Below, piece by piece: positions 3,523 to 63,307 of a stretch of 64,000 nucleotides of DNA; within the stretch, counting starts at the first letter, position 1; every line of letters starts with the position of its first letter. A program made the position numbers and the translations under genes. This DNA comes from Candidatus Omnitrophota bacterium (GTDB lineage: Bacteria > Omnitrophota > Gorgyraeia > Gygaellales > Profunditerraquicolaceae): NCBI GenBank assembly GCA_041651115.1, contig JBAZJY010000001.1, positions 517,165-581,164 on the forward strand, read 5' to 3'. Below the pieces are notes generated by a model. It had not been told where the DNA came from, ran no database searches, and worked only from the letters and a program-made list of their open reading frames with translations.

Positions 3523-3523
3523 A

Positions 3524-6620: not shown

Positions 6621-6643
6621 TAAACTAGGAAAGGAAACTTCAA

Positions 6644-7393: not shown

Positions 7394-7398
7394 TTCCC

Positions 7399-8154
7399 AT
7401 GTCCAAACTTAAGGTCATTTTTCTAATCCTGACCCTTGTTTTTGCCTTATTTTTTATCAAAGATAGGGCTGGCAGGGGCACTGGACAACCTGTTACCTCC
7501 CTCAAAGACAAAAATGGCCCCAGCGAGCGAATAGAGAAGGGGATAGGGGAAAAAATGACCTATGATGTCAAATTGGGAGCGATTAACCTTGGAAAGTCGG
7601 TTTTTACCCATTTGCCTAGCATAGAAGTAAATGGCAGGGTACTAAGCGTAATGGTCTTTGAAACCAGCCTGGCGCGGTTTAAAGACACTGAAGTGATCTA
7701 TGCTGATCCGCAAACCATACTCCCGGTAAAGGTCGAACGGGATATCTCAAAGTGGTTTAGCCGGGAAAAGATCACGGAAGAATATGATCAGGAGGCTTTC
7801 AGCGTTACCATAAAGAAACAAGGCAGCAGCCGGCCCCTGGTATTTAAAAAAGACAGCCCGATCCATAATGCTGTACTTTTACCCCAATATATCCGCTATT
7901 TTCAAGAATTGCTGGATGTTGAGGGAGTCATAATTGCCAACCTTCCCAACCGCCGCTATGAGATCAGGAGGGTTTCTACGGAAGAAATTAAAGTCCCGGC
8001 AGGCATCTTTAAAACCTACCATTTAAGCAGTACGCCAAATCACATAGATATCTGGATCAGCGCGGATGACCGCAGGATCCCGGTTAAAATAAAGAGCAAT
8101 AATCTGGCTTTAGGGTATGTACTGGTTTTGAAGGAATATACCCCTGGAAATTAG
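7399..8154 (+). CDS. hypothetical exported protein (DUF3108-like)
   Basis: N-terminal signal/TM peptide; 251 aa; immediately follows gpmA. Confidence 0.4.
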   Translation: MSKLKVIFLILTLVFALFFIKDRAGRGTGQPVTSLKDKNGPSERIEKGIGEKMTYDVKLGAINLGKSVFTHLPSIEVNGRVLSVMVFETSLARFKDTEVIYADPQTILPVKVERDISKWFSREKITEEYDQEAFSVTIKKQGSSRPLVFKKDSPIHNAVLLPQYIRYFQELLDVEGVIIANLPNRRYEIRRVSTEEIKVPAGIFKTYHLSSTPNHIDIWISADDRRIPVKIKSNNLALGYVLVLKEYTPGN

Positions 8155-8628
8155 CCGATTTTAGCCCCGGGAATACCTAAAAACAACCCTTCCGATATGC
8201 CCAAAAATACCCTAAAATTAGCCCCAAAATCGCCAATTTTAGGCCCAAAAACAGCCATTTATAGCCAACACCCAGTCTGATTGAACCATTGCCAGAAGCC
8301 TTAAAAATGACAGAAAAATGCTTGCCTCTCTTCTTGCTTTTTTTAATAAAATGAAGGGAGGCATCTAACTTGAAATTCCTGAAACTAAGGAATCCGCTCA
8401 TATTAAAATATTATAATCTAATTAAGCTTTCGCAGCCGGATGTTTTGCTTAAAAAAACCCGGTAAGTTTAAGTAAACGAAAACTGGGTTATGCACAAGGA
8501 AATTTTGAATTATCCTAACCCATTGGGCAATCACTGATTATACCATGTTTCTCCAATATGCTCAAGTTAACATAATATACATTATAGGAAGTTGAGCTAT
8601 AGGGTGATTTAGGGGTTATTTAAGGTTT

Positions 8629-9000
8629 TTAAGCGGATTTAGCTTGCTTCTCTGGCGGTTTTTCTGCTGCTGGCTGGGTATTTTGGGGGCTATTTTTGTG
8701 GCTGCTAAGGATATAATTACCGCCTTGTATGCGGATTATTTTACCGTTTACAATGGCATCTGCTACGGTTTTCCGGGCCCTCTCTAAAACCCGGCTAAAT
8801 GTCTGCTGGGATATATTCATTGATTTAGCGGCCTCTTTTTGGCTGATTCCGGTATGGTCAAACAGCCTGATCGCTTCATACTCATCAATGCGTAAATTGA
8901 CCTCATCAGGCCTGCCGGGCTTGCCCCTTGGGCTAAACTGGCTGATCCTTGGGTCTATCCTTACGATCCTGTATTTTCGTGGCCTTCCGCGTGGTCTCAT
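8629..9000 (-). CDS. DUF134/UPF0251 family DNA-binding protein
   Basis: N-terminal MRPRGRPRKYR, conserved F.P.G core and C-terminal HTH (ISQQTFSRVLERARKTVADAI) typical of UPF0251. Confidence 0.65.
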   Translation of the reverse strand: MRPRGRPRKYRIVRIDPRISQFSPRGKPGRPDEVNLRIDEYEAIRLFDHTGISQKEAAKSMNISQQTFSRVLERARKTVADAIVNGKIIRIQGGNYILSSHKNSPQNTQPAAEKPPEKQAKSA

Positions 9001-9093
9001 CGTCAGCGATTTACTTAAACTTACCGGCTTTTAACGCCCCATTTAAAACGAGTACATACTCATAATACCACCCGCCCCAACCGCTTGTCAAGA

Positions 9094-9165
9094 ACAAAAA
9101 AAGTAGGGACAGACACTACTTTTTTTCTTACGCACTTATAAAAAAGTAGTGTCTGTCCCTACTTT
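9094..9165. repeat. GTAGGGAC-family palindromic element, inverted pair upstream of rpoN
   Basis: aaaaagtagggacagacactacttttt at 9094-9125 and its exact reverse complement at 9139-9165, separated by a 13-nt spacer. Confidence 0.8.
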
Positions 9166-9182
9166 TGTGCTATACTTATACC

Positions 9183-10475
9183 ATGGAATTAAGGCAAAAA
9201 ATTGAACTAAGAAAGCACCTTATTCCAGAGCTCAGCCAATCTCTTAATATTCTTGCCCTGCCTTTGTTTGAGGTCCAAAACCTCATTGCTGAAGAACTGG
9301 AAAATAACCCCCTGCTGGAAGAACTAAGCCGGCCGGCTAGCCAAAGGTCTAAGCTGGTAGGCCCGGACTGGGACTTCCAAATGGACCTGATCACCCAAAA
9401 ACCCACCCTGCAGGATATGCTGCTCAGGCAGCTGGGCATGTTTACCAATACTGATGAAGAGTTCAGGATCGGCCAGGAAATTATCGGAAATATTGATGAA
9501 CACGGCTACCTGAAAGCCACGCCTGAAGAGCTTTCCGCCAGCCTGAATATGGCCCCGGAAAAGGTAGAAAAAGTCCTAAAATTGGTGCAGGAATTTGAAC
9601 CTGCGGGAGTCTGCGCCAGGACGCTTTCTGAATGCCTGCTGATCCAGCTAAGGCTATCCAACCAGGATGACCCCCTGCTATTAAAGATCGTAGAATGCCA
9701 CCTTGAGGACCTTGCTAAGAAGAATTACAGCCATATTGCCAAAAGCCTCAAAACCCCCCAGGAAACCCTTGAGCCGCTGATAAAAAAGATCCTCAAACTT
9801 GACCCCAAACCCGGCAGCAACTACTCTCCGCAAGAAGTCCAGCGCGTTATCCCGGATATCTTTATAGACACCCAGGATGAAGAAGAAACCTTAGAAATCA
9901 GCATAAATAACGAAGACATCCCCAGCCTTGCCATTAGCAAAGATTACCGCAAAATGCTCAAAAATAGCGATACGGACAGCAAGACTAAGGAGTTTCTCAC
10001 GGCAAAGCTGCAAAATGCTATGGAACTACTACGGGCGCTTTCAAGAAGGCAGGATACGCTAAGAAAGATCGTGGAAGCGGTTGCGGAGATCCAAAAAGAA
10101 GCAATGACCGAAGACTTATCGCGGCTTAAGCCCCTTACTTTTAGCGAAGTAGCAGAAAAGATCGGTATGCACGAATCAACCGTATGCCGGGCAGTAATGA
10201 ATAAATACGTGAAAACGCCTTACGCGGTAGTGGCGCTAAAGGATTTCTTCACCAGCCACGTGCACAACCAGGACGGCGAATCGGTTTCTTCAAATTTTGT
10301 GAAAAGGCAGATCAAAGAATTGATTGATGGGGAAAATAAAAAGCAGCCGCTGAGTGATGATGATCTTGCAAAACTTTTATCAGAAAAAAACAACCTGAAA
10401 GTTGCCCGCCGCACAGTTGCCAAATACCGCGAAGAACTCAAAATCTTGTCTTCTATCTACCGAAAAGAAAGGTAA
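9183..10475 (+). CDS. rpoN: RNA polymerase sigma-54 factor
   Basis: C-terminal RpoN box ARRTVAKYRE; HTH; glutamine/leucine-rich N-terminus; start moved to MELRQK (9183) to clear the upstream hairpin. Confidence 0.9.
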   Translation: MELRQKIELRKHLIPELSQSLNILALPLFEVQNLIAEELENNPLLEELSRPASQRSKLVGPDWDFQMDLITQKPTLQDMLLRQLGMFTNTDEEFRIGQEIIGNIDEHGYLKATPEELSASLNMAPEKVEKVLKLVQEFEPAGVCARTLSECLLIQLRLSNQDDPLLLKIVECHLEDLAKKNYSHIAKSLKTPQETLEPLIKKILKLDPKPGSNYSPQEVQRVIPDIFIDTQDEEETLEISINNEDIPSLAISKDYRKMLKNSDTDSKTKEFLTAKLQNAMELLRALSRRQDTLRKIVEAVAEIQKEAMTEDLSRLKPLTFSEVAEKIGMHESTVCRAVMNKYVKTPYAVVALKDFFTSHVHNQDGESVSSNFVKRQIKELIDGENKKQPLSDDDLAKLLSEKNNLKVARRTVAKYREELKILSSIYRKER

Positions 10476-10500
10476 AAAGTAGGGACAGACACTACTTTTT
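10474..10500. repeat. third copy of the GTAGGGACAGACACTAC element (self-complementary AAAAAGTAG/CTACTTTTT ends) between convergent rpoN and the activator gene
   Basis: Identical 27-mer to 9099-9125; overlaps the stop codons of both flanking genes; plausible bidirectional terminator hairpin. Confidence 0.7.
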
Positions 10501-25362: not shown

Positions 25363-26575
25363 ATATCCTTTCCAATGCTGTGGACATAAAAATAAAAAAC
25401 CAGAGAATCCGATCCTGTTGCGCATGCAAGAAGATCCCAGCAATTAAGAACCCAACTAATCCGAGATAAAACCCTTTAGCGTACCCACCAAGATCAGATT
25501 TAGATTTTATTATTCGATTTAAACCCCTAAAAGTATAAAAAATTATACCCAAAAATAGAAAAATCCCGATTGTCCCTAACTCTGCCATCATCTCAAGATA
25601 CATATTATGCGCCCGACCCGGATAAACTGGCGCATAATTACGATTTTCATAATAATAATTTCCTACCCCAATACCAAACAAAGGGTGAGCTAGGAATATT
25701 CTCCAAGCAGCTTGAGATAAATAGTACCGACGCGTAGTAGAATCAATATCGCCTTCACCAGTACCATATGCATTAGCGCTTACTTGTATTTTTCCGAAAC
25801 GCTCACGTAACGTTTGGGGCATCGCACTTAGAAAAATCGCTACTGTAATGCAAACTAATATAATTGTAATTATTTTCCTTTTGGCTTTGAAAACTAAAAT
25901 TAAAAACATCCCTCCTAGACCAACCATACCACCACGAGAAACTGTAAAGACTAATGCAAATAAGATCGTGGCTGCTATTCCAGATAAAATTATTTTTAAA
26001 ACTTTATTTTTTTCAACTAAAAACATATAGAATGTAACCGCAATAAATGGCAGGGTCATAATGGCAAATTCGTTTGGACCGTAACCTGTTCCTCCCGCTC
26101 TGCCTAACCCTGAATAAGATAGCACAGTTTGAATGCAAATAAAAAACATCGCGATTGCGATAAACCAAAGTACTAACTTGAATTGCTTAATTTTATGTAG
26201 CAAAATGATTATAGCTACCCCTAGAATCGCACTTGAAGTAAACATCGTGAAATTTTCTCGGGAAGCAAATCCCGGTTGGGTAACACCGGAAATGAACACC
26301 CAAATTAAAAACAGAAAAAAGTAGCGTATTTGTGGCTTTTTAAAAAAATTCCAGGCTCCACTTCTCCCGCCGTAATGCATTAAAGTTGATATAAAGGTCA
26401 GGCTTCCGATAATTTTAATCGGAGTCACCATGGTAAATAACCCAAGGAAACTGCCTCCTAATGTTTGTTGCGTTGATATAGGAATCAAAATAACCGTAAG
26501 CGCCAAACCAAATATTGGGCTTGCGAAGATTCCTATCGCTAACACTATGCCAACTACAATAAAAATCAGGTTCAT
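25343..26575 (-). CDS. O-antigen ligase/polymerase-like membrane protein (exosortase-locus associated)
   Basis: About 10 TM segments with a central periplasmic loop, Wzy/WaaL-like topology. Confidence 0.6.
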   Translation of the reverse strand: MNLIFIVVGIVLAIGIFASPIFGLALTVILIPISTQQTLGGSFLGLFTMVTPIKIIGSLTFISTLMHYGGRSGAWNFFKKPQIRYFFLFLIWVFISGVTQPGFASRENFTMFTSSAILGVAIIILLHKIKQFKLVLWFIAIAMFFICIQTVLSYSGLGRAGGTGYGPNEFAIMTLPFIAVTFYMFLVEKNKVLKIILSGIAATILFALVFTVSRGGMVGLGGMFLILVFKAKRKIITIILVCITVAIFLSAMPQTLRERFGKIQVSANAYGTGEGDIDSTTRRYYLSQAAWRIFLAHPLFGIGVGNYYYENRNYAPVYPGRAHNMYLEMMAELGTIGIFLFLGIIFYTFRGLNRIIKSKSDLGGYAKGFYLGLVGFLIAGIFLHAQQDRILWFFIFMSTALERIYEKNYS

Positions 26576-28845
26576 TCTTTCACCTTGCTTACTACGATTG
26601 AATACAATTGTTCGGTTCTATCTATTTGCTTCCTGATATCAAATCTTTCTTCAATGTGCCTTCTTGCATTTTCTCCAAAACCTTTAGCTAATTCTCTATT
26701 CTTAAGAAATATTTCAATCCCTTCTTTTAGGGCTATGCTATCTTTAGCAGGAACAATAAGCCCTGTTTTATCATTAACTACCGCTTCCGGACTACCGTCA
26801 ACATTAGTTGCGATTACCGGCTTGCCCATCGCACCCGCTTCCAGCGCCACTAATGGGAGCCCTTCGTATAATGAAGGTAAAACTAACAAATCAATCTCCT
26901 TTAATACATTCTCAATATCTCTTCTGTATCCCACAAATTCTACCCTCTCGGAGATTCCCAACCTTTTAGCTTGCCTCTCAAGCTCATTTCTTAAACTGCC
27001 ATCACCTGCTATTAAGAATTTTACATCATCGTATTTACCATCCAAGAGACTAACTGCATCCAAAAAATATTTATGCCCTTTTTGCGGCTCTAACCTGCCG
27101 ATTACCCCTATCGTAAATAGGGACTGTCCCCGTAGGGGACTGTCCCTATTTACAGAAGGCTTGAACCTTGCCAGGTCAATCCCGTTATGAATAACTTCTA
27201 TTTTCTTCTCATCTAATTCTTTTTCATTGACCAGATAACTTTTTACCGCATTAGAAACCGCGATAATCTTATCCACAAAACGATAAAAAAATCTATCTAC
27301 AAAATATGACCTTTTAATTCCTTTTCGCCACGCCTCCCTTAAATGGCTAGTATCTATTACGACCGGGATACCCGCTAATTTTGCCAATGGCGCGGCAAAA
27401 CGAGTGGCAAAAAATAAATGTGAATGCACAATATCCGGTTTTTCTTCTTTAAGAATACCCATGAACTTCTTTATTTCACTTAAATTACGCCAACGCCTTA
27501 TATCAACAGAATAAAATTTTATTTGTAGCCTTTCCAGATCCGGCTTTATTTGCTCGATCAGTTGCCGCGGACATATAAGAATCGGTTCAAACTGCGTCTT
27601 ATCCAATCCTTCAATTAACCGTAGCACATGTTCCTCTACCCCCGCCCTTACTACTGAATTAAGGAAATACAATACTTTTAGGGACTGTCCCCGTAGGGGA
27701 CTGTCCCTAAAAGCCATCAACTTAAAGAAATCTTTTACATCGTCTATCTTTTGCTCTATCTTTTGGTTACTCACCAATACTGCATCCATCGTGCTATTTT
27801 TAATATCAAACCCATGCATTCCTTGTGGCTGCCTGTTCCCCATAAAACTCGGGTTTATCACTACCCCGGCATCCATCAAAAATATAACTTCGCCATACAT
27901 ATCATTGCTGAAATCAATGCCCAATTCTTTGATTTCATTTTCCGGTAATATCCGGCCATAGCTCTTGGTTTTGAGCACATCTAGGATCGCGCTTTTGGCT
28001 TTCTGATTAAAAAACCAGAAACGCGCCATAGTGGAATCATAAAATGGAACATAATCATTCGGGGCCGTAAATCTAAGCTTCTCGATCTCTGCTTTAAGGT
28101 TTTCACTCTTTTCCACTGGGGCCATGCCATGGTCAGAGAAGATATATAGATTTACATGCCTTGACTTGTCTTTTGCGATCCGGTAAAGGTCCTTGATCTC
28201 TCCTTCATATCCATCTATCGCAGCATTAACCTTTGCCCTATCTTTGCAGGACGAATGCAATAAGGCATCAAATTCTGACAAATACAAGAAATAAAAATCA
28301 CTTTCGCGCTTTTCAATGCTTTCCTTTGCGCCGGTAATGATCTCTTTATCTTTAAGCGGATATGCGAAACAACGGTAACCAGCTCCTTCTTTTTCCAAGA
28401 TATCAAAGATGGTTTCTGCCTCTTCTATACCTTTAGAAGCGTAGATGTTCTTTCTCTCACAGATATCATACAAATAAAGCTGCGCAACAGGAATAAGATA
28501 TGTTTCAAAATAACCCGTATAGCCCATCAAGTGCTTGGATATTTCTTCAATAATTTTGCGCGTTATCCGTAAATTCAAAACTGCATCCGGAAGCCAAAGC
28601 AGCGCCTTAGTCCATCTAAATGGCGAAGTCTTAGGTGAATAAAAATAAAGTGACCAGTGTTTGTGCTCCTGCGGATACTTGCCGGTCAATATTGAAGGGA
28701 TGACCCCGCTGGAAAAGCCCAAAATGCTTTTTACCGGCATTTTCGTAACCGCGATATTATTTAAAAAATGCCTATCCCGGATATATTCCCATCCTAGGGC
28801 ATCAATAAGGATAAATATATTAGTTATTTTATTCGTGTTTTCCAT
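26572..28845 (-). CDS. fusion protein: alkaline-phosphatase-superfamily phosphodiesterase domain + family 4 glycosyltransferase
   Basis: N-terminal half has the AlkP/nucleotide-pyrophosphatase-like ILIDALGWEY motif; C-terminal half (from KVLYFLNSVVRAGVEEHV) is GT-B with EGLPLVALEAGAMGKPVIAT; two in-frame repeat-encoded RDSPLRGQSL peptides. Confidence 0.7.
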   Translation of the reverse strand: MENTNKITNIFILIDALGWEYIRDRHFLNNIAVTKMPVKSILGFSSGVIPSILTGKYPQEHKHWSLYFYSPKTSPFRWTKALLWLPDAVLNLRITRKIIEEISKHLMGYTGYFETYLIPVAQLYLYDICERKNIYASKGIEEAETIFDILEKEGAGYRCFAYPLKDKEIITGAKESIEKRESDFYFLYLSEFDALLHSSCKDRAKVNAAIDGYEGEIKDLYRIAKDKSRHVNLYIFSDHGMAPVEKSENLKAEIEKLRFTAPNDYVPFYDSTMARFWFFNQKAKSAILDVLKTKSYGRILPENEIKELGIDFSNDMYGEVIFLMDAGVVINPSFMGNRQPQGMHGFDIKNSTMDAVLVSNQKIEQKIDDVKDFFKLMAFRDSPLRGQSLKVLYFLNSVVRAGVEEHVLRLIEGLDKTQFEPILICPRQLIEQIKPDLERLQIKFYSVDIRRWRNLSEIKKFMGILKEEKPDIVHSHLFFATRFAAPLAKLAGIPVVIDTSHLREAWRKGIKRSYFVDRFFYRFVDKIIAVSNAVKSYLVNEKELDEKKIEVIHNGIDLARFKPSVNRDSPLRGQSLFTIGVIGRLEPQKGHKYFLDAVSLLDGKYDDVKFLIAGDGSLRNELERQAKRLGISERVEFVGYRRDIENVLKEIDLLVLPSLYEGLPLVALEAGAMGKPVIATNVDGSPEAVVNDKTGLIVPAKDSIALKEGIEIFLKNRELAKGFGENARRHIEERFDIRKQIDRTEQLYSIVVSKVKE
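27118..27148. repeat. 31-nt tandem-REP-like palindrome TAGGGACTGTCCCCGTAGGGGACTGTCCCTA inside the GT4 interdomain linker, in frame
   Basis: Identical to the copy at 27679-27709; translated on the minus strand as RDSPLRGQSL. Confidence 0.85.
27679..27709. repeat. 31-nt tandem-REP-like palindrome at the AlkP-GT4 domain junction, in frame
   Basis: Exact duplicate of 27118-27148 with AT-rich inverted flanks. Confidence 0.85.
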
Positions 28846-50426: not shown

Positions 50427-51983
50427 TCATAAACTATTATTCAAATACGCCGGATGCGGTTTGCCGATGATCTGATAAAAATTACGCGCGTGCATGCGGA
50501 ATAATTTATCAAAATCTCCGTTGGGGTCTTCGCCATACCACCAGAACCAGTCGCTTCCTTCCAAAACGCGCATTTGTTTCCACGCCAGCTTAATGTCAAT
50601 GCCGTCTGAACCTTCCTTCTCTATTCTTTCAAGTTCGGAGCGCGCTTCAGTCAGGCTTTCCCACGCGCGATTCTTATGCGGGTTGCCGATCCATTTGCCG
50701 AACTCGCCGTAAATCCATGAGCCCGGGGCAAGGCGCTTGATCTCATGCTCTGCCGGATGTGATTTTAAATATTCCTGCGGCGTGGTTGCGGTAACGAATT
50801 TGGCGCTGGATAAATTTTCATAAAGCAGCTCAAGAAAATCATGGCCGTCATTGGCATAATATTCCCATGCGTTCTCACCGTCCATTGCGATCGTAACAAG
50901 AATATCCTGGTTCTTAAAAGCGGCTGCGATATTTTCCAAATGCTTCATAAAATCGGCAACCGCGGACTTTGAATCCCAGCGATGATAAACAAAACCGATA
51001 AGGTCGGAAAGATTGCGGTCGCGGAAAATAATGCTTAGCTGTCCCTCTTTGCCCTTTAAGAGGTGCGGCTTATATAAAGCGCGGGTATCCCGCTTTTTAA
51101 GGCCCAATGACCTGAATAATATGCCTTCATCGGCAACAATCCATTTAATCCCGGATTCCATAATGAACGGTAATATGTGCCGGCTTACCGCTTCTTCCGA
51201 AGGCCACATGCCCGCCGGCGCCATACCGAAACGCGCCTTGTAGAATTCCACTGCTTCGTCAATTTGCGCTTTGGCATCCTGCGGCCAGCTGAATTGGACC
51301 TGCGGCAGCGTGGTTTTGATATTTGCCTCTTTGGCAGTCTTGGTATTATAAAGCAGCGGCAGTATTGGATGGTAATACGGGCTGATAGAGGCCTCAATCT
51401 GGCCCTTTGCGATGAATTCCTTATAAACGGGGATAACGCCGGAAAGGATCTCTAACTGGGTATTTAAGACAATGGTCTTATCTTCTTCATTGTAGAACCG
51501 GCCTTTGCCAACGATCTTTTTTAATGCCGGGATATTGCGGCGGAAATACGGGTCAAACCAGGCAAGGTTAAACCAAACCTGCAGGTCAAGGAAGTCTTGA
51601 GTGGTAAAATTCTTGCTGGCCTTATGTTTTAGATAAAGCTCGTAGTAACGCGGATGTACTGCAATACACTTTTCAGGGTTAATGCTGAAGAAACGGCTAA
51701 GTAGGAATTCTTTATCCTGTTGGTCAAGCTTATCCGCCGGCTTAAGGGTAAGCTCAAAAAATTTGTCCTTTACTTCGCCGCTAACGTAATCTTCTACCTG
51801 TTCTACCAGCGAAGGCACAAGATTGAATGTCTGGCGCACTGCCGGATACTTATCCAGCATTTTAACCATATCAAGGTAGTCTTTGATGCCGTGCAGCCGC
51901 ACCCAAGGCACATCAGTCTCCTTGGTAAGGAGATTCTTGTAGTACGGCTGATGCATGTGGAAGATAAAGGCGAGGTATAGCAT
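50427..51983 (-). CDS. glycoside hydrolase family 57 enzyme (alpha-glucan branching/amylase-type)
   Basis: N-terminal FIFHMHQPYY GH57 signature; 518 aa as in GH57 branching enzymes. Confidence 0.85.
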   Translation of the reverse strand: MLYLAFIFHMHQPYYKNLLTKETDVPWVRLHGIKDYLDMVKMLDKYPAVRQTFNLVPSLVEQVEDYVSGEVKDKFFELTLKPADKLDQQDKEFLLSRFFSINPEKCIAVHPRYYELYLKHKASKNFTTQDFLDLQVWFNLAWFDPYFRRNIPALKKIVGKGRFYNEEDKTIVLNTQLEILSGVIPVYKEFIAKGQIEASISPYYHPILPLLYNTKTAKEANIKTTLPQVQFSWPQDAKAQIDEAVEFYKARFGMAPAGMWPSEEAVSRHILPFIMESGIKWIVADEGILFRSLGLKKRDTRALYKPHLLKGKEGQLSIIFRDRNLSDLIGFVYHRWDSKSAVADFMKHLENIAAAFKNQDILVTIAMDGENAWEYYANDGHDFLELLYENLSSAKFVTATTPQEYLKSHPAEHEIKRLAPGSWIYGEFGKWIGNPHKNRAWESLTEARSELERIEKEGSDGIDIKLAWKQMRVLEGSDWFWWYGEDPNGDFDKLFRMHARNFYQIIGKPHPAYLNNSL

Positions 51984-52018
51984 TAGGTGATAGGTGTTAG
52001 GTAATAGGTGTTAGGTTT
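51984..52018. repeat. array of five tandem TAGGTNN heptamers abutting the GH57 start codon
   Basis: taggtga taggtgt taggtaa taggtgt taggttt; an inverted copy lies at 52404-52431 and a direct copy at 63273-63307. Confidence 0.85.
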
Positions 52019-52031
52019 AAAGTGATGGATA

Positions 52032-52403
52032 TTAAGCATATTTCCCGAGTGAATTCTTAAGACCGTTTAACATTTTACCACATTCATTATATTCTTGCAC
52101 AAAATAATTATATTTATCTTCCGCAACATATTGCTTCTTAAAGGCAATTGATATATGATGTCTGGTTTCCTGAATTTCTCCTTGCGCCCGGTTAATACCC
52201 TCTAAATAAATATTTAAATGTTTATTATTCCAACCTTCGGCAAGATTCGCAGGGGCTGAATTAGAAGATCTTCTTAATTGGGAGCCTAACTCATACTTTT
52301 CAAAATCAGGAAATTCCTGTGTTAAAGCAGAAACCTCCAAATGTAGCTTACATAATTTTTGATAAACGTCTAAATCCTCAAAGCTATTTATTTGATTTTT
52401 CAT
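52032..52403 (-). CDS. four-helix-bundle protein (TIGR02436; 23S rRNA intervening-sequence-type protein)
   Basis: DLDVYQKLCKL...SAPANLAEG signature of the family; 123 aa. Confidence 0.75.
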   Translation of the reverse strand: MKNQINSFEDLDVYQKLCKLHLEVSALTQEFPDFEKYELGSQLRRSSNSAPANLAEGWNNKHLNIYLEGINRAQGEIQETRHHISIAFKKQYVAEDKYNYFVQEYNECGKMLNGLKNSLGKYA

Positions 52404-52485: not shown

Positions 52486-53925
52486 TTAGAATGTTACCTT
52501 CATTGAACCGATGACTTCAGTTGCTGTGTTGTCATTCCTATTGGAAAGGGCATTACCCGCCCAATAGACACCGGTCAAAAGGGAGAACTGAACATCTTCG
52601 GTATAATCATAGGTAGCCGTGACATCCAATTCTTGACCTAATCCGCCCTTTTTGGTAAAAACGAGGTTCTGTCCAGGTCTTGCAACACTCGTAGCTACTA
52701 GACCGTTGGTAGACCTCTTTGCCAGCCAATAACCATAATATTCGCCTTTTAAGGTGATATCTTCCATAGGCTTCATTGAACCTTTGATACCAGCTATATG
52801 CTGATTGGTCTGGTTCCATAACACATTATGGATATTGCCGAACGTCTGGTTCTCATACATCGGGTCCCATCCGCGGCGATGGCCTGCGTTGGTATCATAG
52901 TTGTCGCTGTCACCGCTAAAATAGGCATACAAAGCAGTCAAAGAAGGTGTATATTTGACTTTTTTAAAATCATAGGTCAACGACGTTTCCAAAGCCCAAG
53001 CTTTAAGGGCTACGGTCGGCTGAGCCGCAGTATTGGTGTTATATCTACCAAACTGATATGCAACTTCCAACTGATACATAAGATTCTCGATGGGCGTAGT
53101 AGATACGCGGGCACCGATAACATCTGTACGAGTAGGCTTATTAATGTTAGTATTCGCTTTTCTGTCAACGTTTCTTTCAAACCAGTATGCCTCTACCTTG
53201 GTGTTCTTGGTGAGATCATAACCGGCATTCACGCCATAAAGATTGGTGTCATCGTAGCTGTTGGTAACTGCCTCTGCGATCTTTGCGCCGATGATGTCAA
53301 TCACCAAAGGATCATAATTAAGGGTAGCGCGAATAGCATCAAACGACTTACGGGCGCTCAGGTCTGCGTTTAACCTGTTAGCGCTGGTGGTACCCACCAC
53401 GTTACTGAACGGGCTGGCTGAACTAACCGCGTTATTAGTATCAGGATCGCCGACTATCATTTCGTTTCCAAAGTGCAGTTCCTGGCGACCAACTGTCATT
53501 GTCAGAGGAGAATACAAAAACTCTTTCAAAGTCACATAAGCCAAGTCAAGATCAATGTCTGTGTTGACATTTCTGTCTGAACTGGCTGCGACTGAACCCG
53601 TATTCTCTGTTTCGCTACCCCAATATCTTTCGTTGAGTATCCTTACGGTGGTAGAAACATTGTCTGTAAGATCAGCATCAACTCTTACGCGGGCAATGCT
53701 AGCAAGAAAAGTATCCGGATACGTTCCTGTTGTACCGGTTCCGGCGGCCTTGCTATTATTAAGCTCAAGCTGGCGAGCAACACCAAGCACGGTGATGTCT
53801 CCGCTTACTTTAACATTTTGAACTTCTGCGTATGCGGTAAATGTGAGGCCTACCACAAACGCCAAAGCCAAAACTAATATCAAGCGTTTACTCATTTGTG
53901 TAACCTCCTTTAAAATTCCAAACAA
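52486..53925 (-). CDS. outer-membrane beta-barrel porin-like protein
   Basis: Signal peptide, alternating amphipathic beta-strands, C-terminal ...KVTF aromatic terminus. Confidence 0.55.
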   Translation of the reverse strand: MFGILKEVTQMSKRLILVLALAFVVGLTFTAYAEVQNVKVSGDITVLGVARQLELNNSKAAGTGTTGTYPDTFLASIARVRVDADLTDNVSTTVRILNERYWGSETENTGSVAASSDRNVNTDIDLDLAYVTLKEFLYSPLTMTVGRQELHFGNEMIVGDPDTNNAVSSASPFSNVVGTTSANRLNADLSARKSFDAIRATLNYDPLVIDIIGAKIAEAVTNSYDDTNLYGVNAGYDLTKNTKVEAYWFERNVDRKANTNINKPTRTDVIGARVSTTPIENLMYQLEVAYQFGRYNTNTAAQPTVALKAWALETSLTYDFKKVKYTPSLTALYAYFSGDSDNYDTNAGHRRGWDPMYENQTFGNIHNVLWNQTNQHIAGIKGSMKPMEDITLKGEYYGYWLAKRSTNGLVATSVARPGQNLVFTKKGGLGQELDVTATYDYTEDVQFSLLTGVYWAGNALSNRNDNTATEVIGSMKVTF

Positions 53926-54206
53926 TATATTTAACTAGGTATTTAAGTGTTGCCTAGATTATTTCTATCTATTTTTATATCACTGGATTTGTGTATGACT
54001 TCGGGCTATTTTTATGTTCATCGCCTCCCTTCTGCCCAACATTAAAGCCATATCCAGTGGTATAACCGATTTTCTCCCTTTTAACATATAAACCTTTACT
54101 TGTCAAGGGTTTTTTAATAAAACCAGGGTTTATATTATGTAACTCCTTTAAATTCAGATATTTAGGAGATTTGTTTCTTTTTTTATTCAAGAGCACTGCT
54201 AGCTGC

Positions 54207-54233
54207 TAGGGACGTCCTTTCAGGTACCACCCT
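54207..54233. repeat. REP-like element copy (CTAGGGACGTCCTTTCAGGTACCACCCT) overlapping the AbiEii stop codon
   Basis: Shares the GGGACGTCC...GGTACCACCCT core with 56435-56460, 57148-57173 and 60295-60320. Confidence 0.75.
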
Positions 54234-54891
54234 GCAAGGCCGCTTTTATCTTCATCTCCAAAATAGCGAATTTTTTTGCAGTGTAATACCTACGCTCATC
54301 TTCCTCCAATAAAGAACCCAGCTTTACGGAGTAATCTTTTGCAGTAAAAGACGTTACCCCTCTTAACAGTCTTTCCAAAACCTCGGCAGGCTCATCCAGC
54401 GCTGCGCCTTTTTTCAAAAGAAACTCAATGTCAAAGGCGTCACGGATCTCTTTTCTGTCTAAAAGCGCCCGGATTTTTGCCGTCAGCATATCCTTTAAAG
54501 ACAGGGCATTCAAAATAACCTGCACGTTTGAATACTTGCTGTATGCGATGGACCGTTCTGATTTTACGGCCTTAAGCTCTTTTCTGATCTCCAGCTTCAG
54601 GGCCCGCGGAAAATTTTTTGACCGGATCTCAAAAAGTATTGTATAAAATTTATCCGTTGCGTCTTTTACCGTATAATAGCGGCTAAGGCAATCCTTTAGA
54701 TTGCGGAATAATTTTTGGGCATCGGTTTTTTTATTGAGCCAAAAATCCAAATCTACGGAAAACCGGTTTAAACCGTAACAGAGCCTAAGCATTGTGCCTC
54801 CGCCAAAAACAAGCCCGCTCAATAATTTTGCGCTGTTTAGCCGATCCAAAACCTCTAATTCAAATTGTTCCTGTTTTATGAGATCCCGCAT
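54220..54891 (-). CDS. AbiEii/DUF1814-family nucleotidyltransferase toxin
   Basis: LVFGGGTMLRLCYGLNRFSVDLDF NTase motif characteristic of AbiEii. Confidence 0.7.
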   Translation of the reverse strand: MRDLIKQEQFELEVLDRLNSAKLLSGLVFGGGTMLRLCYGLNRFSVDLDFWLNKKTDAQKLFRNLKDCLSRYYTVKDATDKFYTILFEIRSKNFPRALKLEIRKELKAVKSERSIAYSKYSNVQVILNALSLKDMLTAKIRALLDRKEIRDAFDIEFLLKKGAALDEPAEVLERLLRGVTSFTAKDYSVKLGSLLEEDERRYYTAKKFAILEMKIKAALQGGT

Positions 54892-55466
54892 ATTTTCCCC
54901 GCTATCTGCCTTGTTTTAAGTGGGTATGCTTTTATTATTTTTTTTAACCTCTGCATATCCAACCTTTCAATATTCAAAGATGCGAAGTCCAATTTATATT
55001 TGCCGAAAGAAAAAAGATAAACGGCATCCATAAAAGCTTTTTCTTTTGTGGCGATAAAAATATTGTCTTTTCTGATAAAATCAAAATAGACTGTTTTTTT
55101 AACTTTGTGATAGTTGAATATTACTCCCTTTATTTCAAAACGCTGGGAGCGTTTTAGGGAAATACTTTCAAAAAAATTCCGCGGAGACTGGGTTGTAACT
55201 TCATAAAACGATAAAGCAGTCATTAAAGATATGTATGAAGGCACCTGCAGGTAATTGGAAAGCGCGAAAAAATCTTCCCGCCTAAAGTTGCCCCAATTCT
55301 GATCCAAGACGTAAAAATTATTTTTAAGCCTTATAAAAACGCCGGATTTTACGTAGCGGCTGGCAAGGACCCGGGCTGATTCAAGGCTAATGCCGGCAAT
55401 ATTTGCCAGATTGGCTATTGTAAAGTAGGGCTTTTCCTGTAACCGGCGAAGCTGCGCGTATTTCAT
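54876..55466 (-). CDS. AbiEi-family antitoxin/transcriptional regulator
   Basis: N-terminal AbiEi_4-like wHTH (FTIANLANIAGISLESARVLASRYVKSGVF); overlaps the abiEii start. Confidence 0.65.
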   Translation of the reverse strand: MKYAQLRRLQEKPYFTIANLANIAGISLESARVLASRYVKSGVFIRLKNNFYVLDQNWGNFRREDFFALSNYLQVPSYISLMTALSFYEVTTQSPRNFFESISLKRSQRFEIKGVIFNYHKVKKTVYFDFIRKDNIFIATKEKAFMDAVYLFSFGKYKLDFASLNIERLDMQRLKKIIKAYPLKTRQIAGKICGIS

Positions 55467-55558
55467 TTGTTTTCCCCCAAAGCCTGATATTTACTAAGTA
55501 TACATAATTAACATCTACGATAAGTATATATCCCTAGTAATCCTTTGTCAAGCTTATT

Positions 55559-55789
55559 TTATTCAACCACGCCAAGGGTTTCGCCGACACTTACAGTGTC
55601 GCCTTCGCTAAAGATGACCTCGGAAAGCGTGCCTGAACAGGGGCTGGGCAGGTTAAAGGTGGCCTTATCAGTGGCAAGCTCAACTAAGTCGTCTTTCTCA
55701 TTTACCTTATCTCCGACTTTATAATACCAATAAGAAACCGTCGCTTTGGTGATGCCTTCGCCTAATTCCGGTAAGATGACTTTTGTCAT
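55559..55789 (-). CDS. stand-alone lipoyl/biotinyl attachment-domain protein
   Basis: 76 aa with the LVELATDKA lipoyl-lysine motif; overlaps lipB by 4 nt. Confidence 0.6.
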   Translation of the reverse strand: MTKVILPELGEGITKATVSYWYYKVGDKVNEKDDLVELATDKATFNLPSPCSGTLSEVIFSEGDTVSVGETLGVVE

Positions 55790-56433
55790 ATTAAAGCCTC
55801 CTCCTTTTCTTTCAAGAATACATTTGTGAATTTCGCGGTTAATCCGGCTTTCAGCGCATTGACCTCAACCTGCCTGCCTAAAGCCGTTTCCAAAGAAACC
55901 ATTTCTATGTCCATGCCGCAAGGCCGGATCAAAGAATAGTTTTTCAGGTCATCATTCTTTATGTTTATGCTCATGCCGTGGAAAGTTATCCAGTTCCTTA
56001 CGCAGATGCCGATAGAAGCGATTTTTTTGCTGCCGAACCAAACACCGGTAAGCCCAAGCCTTCTTGTTGCGGTAATTCCGAAATCGGATAAAAAATCAAT
56101 GGCAGTTTCTTCAAGCTGTCTTAAAAAAAAGTGGATGTCTTTCTTAAAATAATTCAGGTTGAATACCGGATAAATAACAAGTTGGCCCGGGCCGTGATAA
56201 GTAACATCCCCGCCTCTTTCAACTTCAATAAGCTGGATGCCTTTTGCCTGTAATTCGTCTTTACCGATAAGGATATTTTTACGGCTTGCTTGCCTGCCTA
56301 AGGTGATCACCGGATTATGGAAACAGGTTATCAGGCAGGAATTATATGCACCTTTTTTAACGTCGGAAAAAACCAGCCTTTGGCATTCCAAAGCTTCGTT
56401 ATAATCTATTAAACCTAAATCAACCGTTCTCAT
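55786..56433 (-). CDS. lipB: octanoyltransferase (lipoyl(octanoyl) transferase)
   Basis: LipB-like fold with HGPGQLVIYP and conserved Cys/Lys region; 215 aa. Confidence 0.8.
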   Translation of the reverse strand: MRTVDLGLIDYNEALECQRLVFSDVKKGAYNSCLITCFHNPVITLGRQASRKNILIGKDELQAKGIQLIEVERGGDVTYHGPGQLVIYPVFNLNYFKKDIHFFLRQLEETAIDFLSDFGITATRRLGLTGVWFGSKKIASIGICVRNWITFHGMSINIKNDDLKNYSLIRPCGMDIEMVSLETALGRQVEVNALKAGLTAKFTNVFLKEKEEALI

Positions 56434-56434
56434 T

Positions 56435-56460
56435 GGGGACGTCCTTTAAAGTACCACCCT
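56435..56460. repeat. REP-like 26-mer (GGGGACGTCCTTTAAAGTACCACCCT) downstream flank of the RAYT
   Basis: Inverted relative to 57148-57173; overlaps the RAYT stop codon and abuts the lipB start. Confidence 0.8.
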
Positions 56461-57049
56461 ATCTGATCTTAAACACTTTATCTACAATGAGGTCGTAAGG
56501 CCTGTCCTCGGATACATATTTGATATAGGCCTCTTGCCTCTTCTCTTGTATATGGGCCAATCCCGAATAGAGCAAATTAGGCATAATTATTATATCATCG
56601 GTAGAGCCGTAAGCATAGTAAGAAAAACTGCTCCATTTATATCTTGATAAATTATCAACTATTCCTGCACGCAGAGGATTCCGTTCAATATACCTTGCGC
56701 ATTCTAAAAGATAAGCATCATTATTTATGGAGCGGCTCTTATACCGGTTCTGAAAGATAAACCCGACAGAACCATAACGCTTGCGGAATGTAACCGCATA
56801 TACCTGCAGAATTGATTGCATAAATTTTGGTAGATCCGATGCTTTAATAGCTTTAAGCAGCAGGTGTATGTGGTTTGGCATAATGCAGTAATTGGTTATC
56901 TTGACTTCGTAGGAGTGCTGGTATTGCTTAAGTATTGCCAAAAAGTATTCATAGTCATGCTTGCACCTAAACAGGCGCCTACGGTCAATACCCCTTGTAA
57001 CTATATGATAATACCCTCCGTCTATCAAGGCTCTACTTACTCTTGGCAT
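56459..57049 (-). mobile_element. IS200-like Y1 HUH transposase, REP-associated (RAYT) type
   Basis: HUH motif PNHIHLLL and catalytic-Tyr helix ARYIERNPLRAG (Y-x3-NP); 196 aa; flanked by inverted REP-like 26-mers. Confidence 0.75.
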
Positions 57050-57147
57050 ATAGATTCCTCCTTCTAATTAAATAGACGAAAGAAAAAGGAAAATCTAACA
57101 AAGAAATTTTTAGTTGGTTAAAATGACGGGATTAGAAAACTCTGAAA

Positions 57148-57173
57148 AGGGTGGTACCTGGAAGGACGTCCCC
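57148..57173. repeat. REP-like 26-mer (AGGGTGGTACCTGGAAGGACGTCCCC) upstream flank of the RAYT
   Basis: Reverse-complement orientation of the 56435 copy; ends 2 nt before the lpdA stop codon. Confidence 0.8.
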
Positions 57174-57175
57174 TG

Positions 57176-58468
57176 CTATTTGAGCGCTTCGTGGATGCCT
57201 TCGGACAGGCTGGGGTGGGCAAAGATCGTATCGCGGATCTGCGATACGGATAATTTATTGGAAACTGCCAGGCCGGCAATCGCAATGAGCTCTGCCGCGG
57301 AAGGCCCGAGTATTGCGCAGCCAAGCACTACTCCGGATTTTGCCTCTGAAATAAATTTAATGAAACCGTCTGCTTCATCCATAATCCTTGCCATGCCGGA
57401 AGCCATAAAATCAAATTTATGCAGCTTCACTTCAATACCCTTGGCAATTGCTTCTTCTTCACTCATTCCCACGCTTGCTGCCTGGGGATCGGTAAAAATG
57501 CAGCTGGGCACGACCTGGTTATCGCACTTTTTTGGCTTGGCAGAATCTGCGATGTTCTCTGCCGCAATAACTCCTTGGTAAGCGGCATAATGCGCAAGCA
57601 TTAACTTTCCTGTGCAGTCTCCGGCGGCGTAAATATTAGGAATATTTGTCCTAAGATATTCATCAACGACGATCTTTCCTTTTTCAGTTACTACACCGAT
57701 AGATTCTAAGCCTAACCCTTGCGTATCCACTGCCCTGCCCACGGCAAGCAGCACCAAATCATAATTATTAAAATCCGCGGGCTGCGCCTCGGCATTAGTG
57801 CTTACCTTGATGCCTTTCTTTTTAAAAGATTGCTCAAGCTTGCGGCTAATGTCTTTATCCATTCCCGGCAAAAGCTGGGGCATTTTTTCAATCACTGTAA
57901 CCGTTATGCCAAGGCCGGCAAATAAGCCGGCGAATTCACAGCCAATCACCCCGCCGCCAATAATAAGAAGTGTCTTAGGAAGTTCCCTTAACTGCAGGAT
58001 CTCGTCGCTGGAAATAACTTTCTTACCATCAAGCTTGATCTGGCGTAATTCTGCCGGCGTTGAGCCACAGGCAATAAGAATAAATTTCGCGGACAGCTCT
58101 TTGCCGCCTGCTTTTACGGAATTCGCGGAAATGAGTTTTGCTTCGGCGTTGATGAAATCCACGCCCTTAAGCATAAATGCCATGCCTGCTGAAAGCTGCT
58201 GAATAATTTTATCTTTTCTGGATTGGATTTCGGGAAAATTTATTGCGGGGTTTGTAACTTCTATACCGAAGGTTTTTGATTTTTTTGCCAGGGAGTAAAC
58301 TTTGGCTGACTGGATAAGCGCCTTGGTGGGGATACAGCCGCGGTTAAGGCAGGTGCCGCCGATTTGGCTGTTCTCAATTACGGCAACTTTCAGGCCGGAG
58401 TCTTTGGCTTTTAAAGCCGCGTTAAACCCTGCCCATCCACTGCCGATGATGATCAAATCGTAATTCAT
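57176..58468 (-). CDS. lpdA: dihydrolipoyl dehydrogenase
   Basis: FAD motif GSGWAG, redox-active disulfide GGTCLNRGCIPTK, NAD motif GGGVIGCE, C-terminal HAHP-like region. Confidence 0.8.
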   Translation of the reverse strand: MNYDLIIIGSGWAGFNAALKAKDSGLKVAVIENSQIGGTCLNRGCIPTKALIQSAKVYSLAKKSKTFGIEVTNPAINFPEIQSRKDKIIQQLSAGMAFMLKGVDFINAEAKLISANSVKAGGKELSAKFILIACGSTPAELRQIKLDGKKVISSDEILQLRELPKTLLIIGGGVIGCEFAGLFAGLGITVTVIEKMPQLLPGMDKDISRKLEQSFKKKGIKVSTNAEAQPADFNNYDLVLLAVGRAVDTQGLGLESIGVVTEKGKIVVDEYLRTNIPNIYAAGDCTGKLMLAHYAAYQGVIAAENIADSAKPKKCDNQVVPSCIFTDPQAASVGMSEEEAIAKGIEVKLHKFDFMASGMARIMDEADGFIKFISEAKSGVVLGCAILGPSAAELIAIAGLAVSNKLSVSQIRDTIFAHPSLSEGIHEALK

Positions 58469-59382
58469 TTGATCTCTTTATACTGTTCCTTTAATTTAGC
58501 TGCGCAAGCCTGCAGGCTGCTAAGTTCCTCTGTATTCAATTCCAATTCAATTACTTTTTCAATGCCGCTCTTGCCTAATTTGCAGGGTGAACCTATGCAA
58601 ACGTCTTTAATGCCGTATTCGCCGTTTAAGTAAGCGGAAACCCCGACTACGCGGCTATGGCCCCTGGCAATGATACCGGCCAGCTCTGCGATCGCTGCCG
58701 AAGGCGCGAAATAAGCGCTGCCTGAACCAAGTAAAGAAACGATCTCTTTGCCCCGGTCAAAAGTACGAGCGGCCAATTCACGGGCCTTATCACTACCCAC
58801 GATCTTATCAAGGCTTGAGCCTTTTACTTTTGTAAAGCGAGTTAAAGGCATCATACCTTCGCCATGGCTGCCGATCACACAAGGCTCTATCTCGGTTACC
58901 GGAATATTGAGTTCATTGCTAATGAGATTAGCAAAGCGCGAAGCATCCAGTGTAATACCCATGCCAAATACTTTACTTGGGGCAAAACCCGTAACCTGCA
59001 AGGCAAGCCGGGTCATTAAATCAAGGGGATTGGTGACGATGATTACGATTGCCTGCGGACTAAGCGATTTTATATTTAAGCAAACGTCTTTTAGGATCTG
59101 CGCGTTCTTATTCAGCAGGTCCTCGCGCGTCATTCCAGGCTTGCGCGCCAAGCCTGCGGTAACGATCACGATATCAGAACCGCTGATCCCATTAATATCA
59201 TCTGTGCCGGTAATGTTAAAGTCGGACTTTAACAATAGCCGGCTATCGTCCATATCAAAGGCCTTACCTTGCGCAATACCCTTGGCAATATCCACCAAAA
59301 AAATATCGCCTAACCCATCCTGGGCAAGGCGCATTGCAGTTAAACCGCCGACATTACCAGCTCCGATAACGGATATTTTCAT
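58465..59382 (-). CDS. mdh: malate dehydrogenase (LDH-like MDH)
   Basis: [13 protein letters not shown] Rossmann motif, catalytic TNPLD and GSHGE regions. Confidence 0.8.
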
Positions 59383-60443
59383 TTTAATTTTGCAATAATT
59401 GCGTCTGCCATTTCCGCAGTACCCACGCTTGAGGGGTCGTCGCGACGCGGCTTTAAGTCATAAGTCACGGACTTGCCTTCGGCAATCACCTGCTTGACTG
59501 CGGTTTCCAGCCGATTAGCAGCTTCTTTTTCCCCGATATGCTCAAGCATCAATACTCCGGATAAGATCATTGCCGTAGGATTGACTTTATTCATACCGGC
59601 ATACTTTGGCGCTGAACCATGCACTGCCTCAAATACTGCCATTTCATTGCCGATATTGGCGCCGGGAGCAATGCCTAATCCGCCGATCAGGCCGGCGCAA
59701 AGATCGGAAATAATATCGCCGTAAAGGTTAGGCAGTACCAGGACATCGTAATTCTCCGGACGCTGCACTAATTGCATTGACATATTATCCACGATCGCGT
59801 CTTCAAAGGCAACCCTTCCGGTATATTCTTGAGCAACTTCCTTTGCGACTTTCAGAAATAGCCCGTCGGTAAATTTCATAATGTTTGCTTTATGCACGGC
59901 AGTGACTTTTTTACGGTTATGCTTTAAGGCATATTCAAAGGCAAACTTAACGATGCGTTCGGAAGCAGTCCTTGAGATTGGTTTGATGGAAATGCCGGAA
60001 TCCGGACGGATCTTTTTTTTATTGTATTTGGCGATCTCTTGGATCAAGTGCTCGGTTTCCGGCTTGCCCTCTTCAAATTCAATACCGGCGTAAAGGTCTT
60101 CGCTGTTCTCCCTGATAATCACCAGGTCAATATTCTTGTAGTGGCTCTTTACTCCTGCGTATGATTTAGCCGGCCTGACGCAAGCATATAAGTCTAATGC
60201 CTGCCGGATCGCCACGTTAACCGAACGGAAGCCACTGCCGACAGGCGTCGTTATCGGGCCTTTTAGCGCGACTTTTGTCTTTTTTACGCTCTCAAGGGTG
60301 GTACCTGGAAGGACGTCCCCGTATTTTTCGAGCACCTCTTCCCATTCAATCTTCACGCCGGTAGCGTCAATGCAGCGCTTTGCTGCCAACGCCACTTCAG
60401 GGCCAATGCCGTCTCCCGGTATTAAAGTGATCTTATAAGCCAT
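59379..60443 (-). CDS. isocitrate/isopropylmalate dehydrogenase-family enzyme (Icd-like)
   Basis: [45 protein letters not shown] motifs; most similar in pattern to prokaryotic IDH. Confidence 0.75.
60295..60320. repeat. REP-like 26-mer identical to the RAYT flank, located inside the icd/leuB-like CDS in frame
   Basis: AGGGTGGTACCTGGAAGGACGTCCCC, 26/26 identity with 57148-57173; encodes GDVLPGTTL. Confidence 0.8.
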
Positions 60444-63272: not shown

Positions 63273-63307
63273 TAGGTGTTAGGTCTTAGGTGCTGGGTGT
63301 TAGGTGA
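63273..63307. repeat. array of five tandem TAGGTNN heptamers abutting the leuC start codon
   Basis: taggtgt taggtct taggtgc tgggtgt taggtga, same orientation as 51984-52018. Confidence 0.85.

Follow-up and report, generated by a model that had tools for sequence, protein, structure and literature searches.

A 64,000-nt stretch of a Candidatus Omnitrophota metagenome-assembled genome (MAG), called the window below and the source of all coordinates given without a locus name, holds between lpdA and lipB a small transposase gene accompanied by inverted 26-nt repeats. This arrangement raises the question of whether the repeats are repetitive extragenic palindromes (REPs) served by a REP-associated tyrosine transposase (RAYT), as the initial annotation of this DNA had proposed, or the termini of a mobile element of another kind. 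The comparisons described here favor the second answer: positions 56435-57173 probably form a 739-bp TIRtron, in which a RAYT-class HUH/Y1 gene lies within its own 26-nt inverted repeats and has been inserted as a unit between lpdA and lipB. Such elements, whose enzymes are called TIRYTs, were described as RAYT-like genes that are flanked not by REPs but by long inverted repeats at their termini (Di Nocera et al. 2013, PMC3733652). The features concerned are collected in Table 1.

Table 1. Transposase gene, leader and terminal repeats of the element, together with the two further repeat copies (window coordinates).
Feature	Coordinates	Strand	Remarks
HUH/Y1 transposase gene, RAYT/TIRYT class	56459..57049	-	196 aa; assigned from Pfam, NCBIfam, motifs and fold model
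Leader region	57050..57147	-	GTTAGATT motif, hairpin, ribosome-binding site
Left terminal inverted repeat (LE)	57148..57173	-	gene strand reads GGGGACGTCCTTCCAGGTACCACCCT; homologous LE in orthologs
Right terminal inverted repeat (RE)	56435..56460	+	GGGGACGTCCTTTAAAGTACCACCCT; RE kept in orthologs
Solo right-oriented repeat copy	54208..54233	+	last four codons (QGGT) and stop of AbiEii toxin gene
Left-oriented repeat copy within icd	60295..60320	-	codons 42-50, GDVLPGTTL

The class of the enzyme can be approached through its motifs, profile matches and predicted fold. The HUH motif and the Y-x3-NP tyrosine helix read from ORF 56459-57049 at the outset were both recovered: the 196-residue product contains PNHIHLLL (H60, H62) and RYIERNP, whose predicted catalytic tyrosine (Y120) is present on closer alignment, and it matches Pfam Y1_Tnp (E 4.6e-19). 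The suggested classification of the protein as RAYT or IS200 TnpA came out on the RAYT side, with 81.7 bits for NCBIfam NF047646 (REP_Tyr_transpos; cut-off 80) against 29.7 bits for the IS200 model NF033573, which is below its threshold of 55. Furthermore, REP_Tyr_transpos was matched by 26/26 aligned family members, and the best PDB match of the family profile was Escherichia coli TnpA_REP (4ER8, E 0.0022, residues 2-143), in an alignment that brings the HUH, FQNRY/WQPRF and YIERNP/YIYINP motifs into correspondence. The AlphaFold model of the protein (pLDDT 88.3), in which the C-terminal 50 residues are helical, again retrieved 4er8_A as the top fold match (E 2.3e-8, TM 0.75 on the target), followed by the IS608, ISDra2 and IS200 transposases. 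Because the NCBIfam RAYT model is passed, the motifs are kept and 4ER8 ranks best by both profile and fold, the protein is assigned, on predicted structure and motif content, to the RAYT-class Y1 enzymes, with catalytic residues intact, and not to IS200 TnpA.

The repeats around this gene are indeed near-perfect inverted 26-mers, the LE and RE arms being complementary at 23/26 positions (88%). Their placement directly outside both gene ends, as originally described, applies to RE, which shares 2 nt with the transposase TAG stop and leaves 1 nt before the lipB ATG; it does not apply to LE, which starts 2 nt past the lpdA stop codon and is separated from the transposase ATG by 98 nt. A search of the 64-kb window with GGGGACGTCCTTnnnnGTACCACCCT, allowing up to three mismatches, returned exactly four matches (54208+, 56435+, 57148- and 60295-) and none in 100 dinucleotide shuffles of the window. 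The two further copies that had been noted beside the terminal pair are thus real: the copy at 60295-60320 lies within the icd coding sequence and is not extragenic, and the copy at 54208-54233, situated 2.2 kb downstream of the element, supplies the end of the AbiEii gene. A position weight matrix derived from 88 ortholog ends found no further window copy above 5 bits, and all four window copies fall within 3.3 kb of the transposase gene.

Relatives found via LpdA reveal what the locus looks like without the element. The gene order leuC-pilT-leuD-icd-mdh-lpdA-lipB-gcvH-like is kept in these genomes. In L098 (LpdA 69% identical) lpdA and lipB are separated by a gap of 7 nt, and neither the transposase nor the AbiE pair is present, while in L096 and L097 (LpdA 77% identical) the gap is 39 nt. 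The window junctions read lpdA-TAG-CA-[LE...RE]-A-ATG-lipB, so that the inserted DNA is the repeat-to-repeat unit of 739 bp. Since the lpdA-lipB junction is empty in the relatives, the repeats mark the exact ends of the inserted DNA, and the insertion was precise. No target-site duplication accompanies the insert between lpdA and lipB, which is the expectation for HUH/Y1 chemistry. An assembly artefact was considered and rejected, since the sequence recurs in two further public assemblies: a k141 contig from ENA is base-identical to the window over 17.5 kb, icd included, and a Logan contig is identical over 4.8 kb (53882-58720), covering the element but not icd. As these assemblies agree, the arrangement is not an artefact of a single one. 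As a separate observation, AAGGA within RE, about 10 nt 5' of the lipB ATG, is the sole Shine-Dalgarno (SD)-like sequence available to lipB, and the insert may now drive translation of that gene.

The same architecture recurs throughout a family of orthologs. Protein searches returned 655 homologs at E <= 0.001, including hundreds of orthologs that are nearly all 195-197 residues long and 50-78% identical, with a mean column identity of 72% in the family alignment; every ortholog with a source name is annotated as Omnitrophota or Omnitrophica. From 85 ortholog loci collected, 74 were retained after removal of near-duplicates. LE is present in 59/62 of the orthologous loci with enough flank and RE in 69/71. 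LE lies 90-176 nt ahead of the ATG in most loci (outliers at 220 and 254 nt), and RE mostly begins between -1 and +9 nt relative to the stop codon (outliers at +26 and +39 nt). The gene neighborhoods are unrelated between orthologs, even the closest ones (77%, 68% and 67% identity), and no genes common to the neighborhoods of the other ortholog loci were found. The succession of repeat, leader, gene and repeat is therefore conserved across Omnitrophota orthologs despite unrelated surroundings. In addition, a scan of GTDB representative genome contigs, which exclude the source genome, with GGGACGTCCTnnnnnGTACCACCC yielded 4 loci, two of which are ortholog left ends in other Omnitrophota MAGs, while the consensus repeat was without match in viral contigs. 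Separately, a contig binned as Candidatus Aminicenantales (L013, 2792-2832) carries two overlapping repeat copies of 27 and 38 bits, which could reflect either spread of the element family outside Omnitrophota or a contaminated bin.

Conservation also extends to the leader. In an alignment of 34 leaders the GTTAGATT motif (57092-57099 in the window) is invariant, and the order from LE to the ATG is GTTAGATT, a pyrimidine tract, a loop with a conserved CGTCTATT and a GGAGG ribosome-binding site. We infer that GTTAGATT is an extended -10 promoter; a simple promoter scan did not call the motif. A hairpin at 57051-57097 pairs the pyrimidine tract, acting as an anti-SD, with GGAGG (57057-57061), with a minimum free energy of -13.0 kcal/mol in the window (z = -3.45). 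Of the 63 orthologs with a recognizable SD, 46 have it fully paired in their minimum free energy structure, and the arms vary by locus with complementarity kept, e.g., ATACCTCCTTTCAC/GTGAAAGGAGGTAT vs TTCCCTTTTTCTGC/GTAGGAGGAGGGAA. These structures were folded sequence by sequence, automatic consensus folding having given only 4 pairs because of indels, and an Rfam search with the leader matched no family.

Whether the repeats are REPs depends on their structure and distribution. Folded as single-stranded DNA, the window 26-mers reach only -0.8 to -2.6 kcal/mol (z > 0), and none of the four foldings (both strands of both window variants) beat shuffles, so that a REP hairpin was rejected for this genome. 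A GT[AG]G foot, looked for at either repeat end, was absent. The family consensus repeat, GGGGACGTTCCCCAAGGT(G/A)CCACCCT, does form a small GGGGA-CGT-TCCCC hairpin (-5 to -7 kcal/mol, z = -1.1 to -2.6), which is degraded in the window variant (GGGGACGTCCTTCC...). Because they have no hairpin and no GTAG foot, and because all four window copies are local to the gene, with one intragenic, the window repeats are not REPs. Of the proposed RAYT-REP arrangement, then, the RAYT enzyme with an inverted, recurring repeat stands and the REP half falls. The GTAG/TAGGGAC repeat families elsewhere in the window, considered plausible substrates of the enzyme by the initial annotation, do not match the 26-nt repeat matrix and have only the GGGAC/GTCCC core in common with it.

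The closest described counterparts are the TIRtrons. Their repeats often share GGGGWSAS and stand at similar distances from the gene, with a 3' repeat that may overlap it; some make up small families whose members occur singly, as dimers or in groups (PMC3733652). The present elements resemble them in several respects: a RAYT-like Y1 gene is flanked by long terminal inverted repeats and not by REP hairpins, the distance of the upstream repeat is roughly fixed, the gene is overlapped by the 3' repeat, repeat starts are G-rich, and the repeats are also found singly, as dimers and in groups, in numbers that are low to moderate. The repeats of orthologs L020, L048, L055 and L092 contain GGGGACAC, an exact fit to GGGGWSAS, whereas the window repeat, reading GGGGACGT with an inner half GGTACCAC, fits in part only (6/8 positions). 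Most TIRYTs belong to TnpA-Y1 subclass 2.1, characterized by Quentin et al. 2018 (PMC6006769) by NH[VYF]H, W[EQ]/FQ and YIELNP and by the lack of REPs; the corresponding motifs here, NHIH, FQNRY and YIERNP, agree with NHxH, FQ and YIE(R/L)NP. Furthermore, highly abundant flanking 16-mers occur only in RAYT groups 2 and 3, with about 12 occurrences in group 1 (Bertels et al., PMC5581495), the group that corresponds to subclass 2.1; this is in line with the low copy number observed here. The present family differs from the known TIRtrons in its phylum, Omnitrophota, and in three features that are not described in the sections of PMC3733652 and PMC6006769 used here, namely the conserved leader with its promoter and SD-hiding hairpin, the polarity rule detailed below and the in-frame copy in a core gene. 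Altogether, it seems likely from these sequence comparisons that the element is a TIRtron rather than a REPtron.

Beyond the terminal pairs, extra copies of the repeat are few and follow a rule of orientation. In the 545 kb of flank that the 74 loci provide, 43 extra copies were counted, mostly no more than 3 kb from the gene; the long loci without any include L021, L054, L082 and L089. Upstream copies are left-oriented in 19 cases and right-oriented in 1, and downstream copies are left-oriented in 5 and right-oriented in 18 (Fisher p 1.2e-6); the window fits this rule with the succession L (icd), L, gene, R, R. Gene-less inverted doublets are present in three relative loci, one of which (L093, 13483-13542, 60 nt) folds at -38.7 kcal/mol, and by analogy these doublets can be regarded as counterparts of REPINs or of miniature inverted-repeat transposable elements. 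Larger arrays occur in two loci. L003 carries seven left-oriented copies within 7 kb upstream (array region 2880-9930), each just past the stop codon of a module of 1-3 genes, mostly toxin-antitoxin pairs, and L007 carries four (array region 2690-9890). The modules of the two arrays include AbiE, HigBA-like, RelE/MqsA, NTP_transf_8, GNAT, hydrolases and a nitroreductase. The seven L003 copies hardly differ from one another, and their near-identity extends to the right end of L003, not to its left end. Some array copies keep the leader, and L003 7169-7330 comprises a left end, the leader and about 17 transposase codons; because of this retention, at least some array copies are decayed left ends. 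Single genes are bracketed exactly by two left copies in L072 and L038. Moreover, two right-oriented copies bracket a convergent tmk (thymidylate kinase) gene about 770 nt after the transposase gene in L073, L075, L078, L080, L084 and L071, and the tmk ORFs of these six loci read through the repeat, giving C-terminal tails such as ...GDVPQSTTLL and ...WGRSPKYHP.

With these distributions in hand, the competing explanations can be weighed. A canonical REPtron, in which the 26-mers would belong to a genome-wide, high-copy REP/REPIN family spread by a domesticated, immobile RAYT, is suggested by the NCBIfam assignment and by the likeness to E. coli TnpA_REP (RayT/YafM, 4ER8; PMC3479197, PMC8266576), which is the best profile and fold match, shares HUH and Y---NP and likewise is a single gene between inverted copies of its cognate repeat; the REPIN-like doublets of the three relatives and the clustering of seven near-identical copies in L003 point the same way. 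REPs, however, form hairpins of 20-40 nt that carry a 5' GT[AG]G foot, and they are scattered through extragenic space in hundreds of copies, whereas the window 26-mers are neither palindromic nor footed, the hairpin being weak or absent in the family. Only 4 copies occur in the 64-kb window, all near the gene, the 43 extra copies of the family are mostly as local and are lacking in several long loci, and the unit itself behaves as an insertion relative to empty sites. A REPtron is therefore considered unlikely. An ordinary, active insertion sequence of the IS200 group, spreading selfishly with several identical copies per genome, would share the HUH/Y1 fold and would account for the precise insertion without target duplication, the differing gene contexts of the orthologs and the truncated second copy at L003 7169-7330. 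Translation of IS200 is reported to be repressed by a leader stem-loop over the ribosome-binding site, and the hidden ribosome-binding site of the present leader resembles it. Nevertheless, IS200/IS605 elements have a Y---Q motif, enzymes of roughly 130-150 residues, subterminal hairpins, no inverted terminal repeats and multiple copies. The present ends, in contrast, are inverted repeats, and the tyrosine motif is Y-IER-NP, i.e., Y---NP and not Y---Q by Table 1 of PMC6006769. The IS200 model score is below its cut-off, a single transposase gene was seen per locus in all 85 loci, the protein clusters lie mostly on a single contig, and the uniform length and the column identity of the family also speak against this origin, which is given little credence.

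The third alternative concerns the repeats more than the enzyme. It holds that the 26-mers are recombination sites, with the Y1 enzyme excising and inserting cassettes bounded by directly repeated copies and arrays growing outward from each end of the gene, as in an integron but by HUH chemistry. The polarity rule would fit such growth, and both the L003 and L007 arrays, with the L003 copies placed just after module stop codons, and the exactly bracketed single genes of L072 and L038 have the appearance of cassettes. On the other hand, several of the bracketed genes have housekeeping roles, namely tmk in six loci and, in the window, icd'-mdh-lpdA, and the left-end remnants with leader and gene start indicate decayed elements instead of dedicated sites. 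The boundary of the AbiE insert in the window does not coincide with its repeat, about 93 nt more unique DNA lying beyond it. In addition, no cassette was common to different arrays, and no strain-to-strain cassette polymorphism was observed. A cassette system is accordingly regarded as improbable, and the same slight chance is given to its mechanistic form, in which the repeats would be working Y1 recombination sites and not only transposon ends, and genes lying between directly repeated left copies upstream, or right copies downstream, would be excised and reinserted as single-stranded circles to build polar arrays of toxin-antitoxin and other cassettes. If this were true, it would amount to integron-like gene capture by HUH chemistry, and the same activity could also place a copy of the site in core genes such as icd.

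The icd copy requires separate consideration. Positions 60294-60320 are identical to LE (57147-57173) over 27/27 nt, and among 183 repeat hits over all loci this copy is the sole one buried in a conserved gene. It was first of all not an inserted repeat: ICD aligns to its PDB homologs without a gap across the repeat, residues 42-50 having gained no length. A purely native origin was likewise rejected in view of the complete identity to LE and of the closest ICDs (85% and 76% identity), which read GEILPQNVI and GELLPQNVL at the site between identical flanks (EKYG...SVKK). An integration (att) site with a duplicated fragment was excluded as well, there being no icd remnant after LE and the gene order being as in relatives. 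The opposite reading, that of a foreign patch, is weakened by the natural variability of the segment across 120 ICDs (G[DE][VIL]LPxx[VT][LI][DE]), and the repeat-encoded peptide thus lies within the range of the family; the consensus repeat in the icd frame would give GDVPQGTTL. Alone among the 120 homologs, the window ICD is without a stretch of six residues that reads IAGQAA in the closest relative; the gap falls at icd codons ~36-37 (60333-60350 region), 12 nt upstream of the patch. The protein measures 354 residues compared with 356-390 (mostly 359-365) in the other 119. Near the patch, a Ser codon reads AGC vs TCC, a different codon class. In L012, from another MAG, the ortholog is flanked by an almost identical left end with one mismatch. 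Because this repeat variant is thereby older than the icd copy, transfer from the left end to icd is the more likely direction, and the copy may have originated by short-patch conversion seeded by coding-driven similarity or by an aberrant strand transfer of the enzyme. Rickettsia palindromic elements are short in-frame repeats inside protein-coding genes, but they are insertions that add residues. According to PMC6006769 and PMC3733652, REPs are also sometimes intragenic without breaking the frame, again as insertions. The icd copy resembles both in lying within a coding gene with the frame kept, and it differs from both in that it replaces an equal number of native codons and matches LE exactly.

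With the TIRtron reading preferred, a mechanism can be outlined in conditional terms. The enzyme would recognize the repeat on single-stranded DNA and would cut and rejoin it through a 5'-phosphotyrosine link, by analogy with IS608 TnpA and E. coli TnpA_REP. Its activity would rarely move the whole unit and would seed repeat copies close by, while the leader hairpin over the ribosome-binding site would keep translation low. The exact left-end copy in icd could then have arisen as a side effect of the enzyme or through short-patch conversion from LE, and it would have been tolerated since the peptide encoded in that frame would be compatible with a naturally variable stretch of the ICD surface. 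All of this, beyond the fold, motifs, architecture and insertion boundaries, is inferred. Several points weigh against the TIRtron reading itself. The window repeats are without the consensus hairpin, so that the window copy of the element may be inactive. Only a single gene copy per locus was seen, which leaves current mobility putative. The protein has 196 residues, compared with a median of 238 residues and a C-terminal helix-turn-helix in subclass 2.1, according to PMC6006769. Finally, a 27-nt codon replacement in icd without change of length is not obviously explained by either Y1 chemistry or gene conversion.

Although TIRtrons have been catalogued, no biochemical or mechanistic study of any of them was found in the literature, and no description of such an element in Omnitrophota was found either. 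The conservation of promoter and leader hairpin, the polarity rule, the left-end cassette arrays and the exact in-frame icd copy may be new. The Omnitrophota family offers a clean system with conserved ends, a promoter motif and an SD hairpin, for which empty sites and gene-less doublets are available. It can be used to study how RAYT-class enzymes recognize ends unlike REP hairpins and to ask what moves: the enzyme's own gene, the repeats only, or neighboring genes. The order L...L, gene, R...R limits the models that can be proposed for the origin of repeat copies, and the exact icd copy indicates that a core enzyme can survive being rewritten in part by repeats of this kind. For annotation, caution is advisable, as passing a RAYT model is not equivalent to having a REP family.

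Further observations concern the neighborhood of the element and other repeats of the window. The AbiEi-like/AbiEii pair (54220-55466; region 54115-55540) and its repeat copy are absent from the corresponding site in L098 and L096. In L096 (2915-3905), and also in L097, a different, 230-residue Y1_Tnp gene directly follows the gcvH-like gene. This gene has a flanking repeat, AAAACGGGGTCAGATTTATTTT, found also between lpdA and lipB, and a leader of like design (GTTAGATT...CGTCTGTT...GGAG), and it is succeeded by a diverged duplicate, of about 130 bp, of the 3' end of the gcvH-like gene. Because another Y1 element occupies the AbiE site in L096, this position, 3' of the gcvH-like gene, has the look of a hotspot for insertions.

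A perfect 31-nt hairpin, TAGGGACTGTCCCCGTAGGGGACTGTCCCTA (-13.1 kcal/mol, z = -5.6), is present twice (27118-27148 and 27679-27709) in one 757-residue ORF (26572-28845, minus strand), where each copy encodes RDSPLRGQSL in the frame of that ORF. A phosphodiesterase domain and a GT4 glycosyltransferase domain flank one copy, and the other falls between the two GT4 halves. Near-identical sequences occur twice in a 1503-residue ORF of another Omnitrophota contig (L019, 2357-2383 and 3326-3352). This hairpin has the GGGAC/GTCCC core in common with the element repeats and does not match their matrix. A 27-nt hairpin with GTAG...CTAC feet, AAAAAGTAGGGACAGACACTACTTTTT, is found at 9098-9124, 9141-9167 and 10474-10500. 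Two of the copies form an inverted pair upstream of rpoN, and one separates rpoN from an NtrC-type activator gene where the two genes converge. The sequence has the appearance of a double-foot REP or of a terminator acting in both directions. Tandem 14-nt units (TTAGGTAATAGGTG) stand at 51977-52039 beside a 23S_rRNA_IVP/Avd-like gene, and 11 kb away there is a related copy (63273-63307). Lastly, four segments of about 77 nt with 68-71% identity between 15007 and 17694 appear to be shared ends of paralogous genes.

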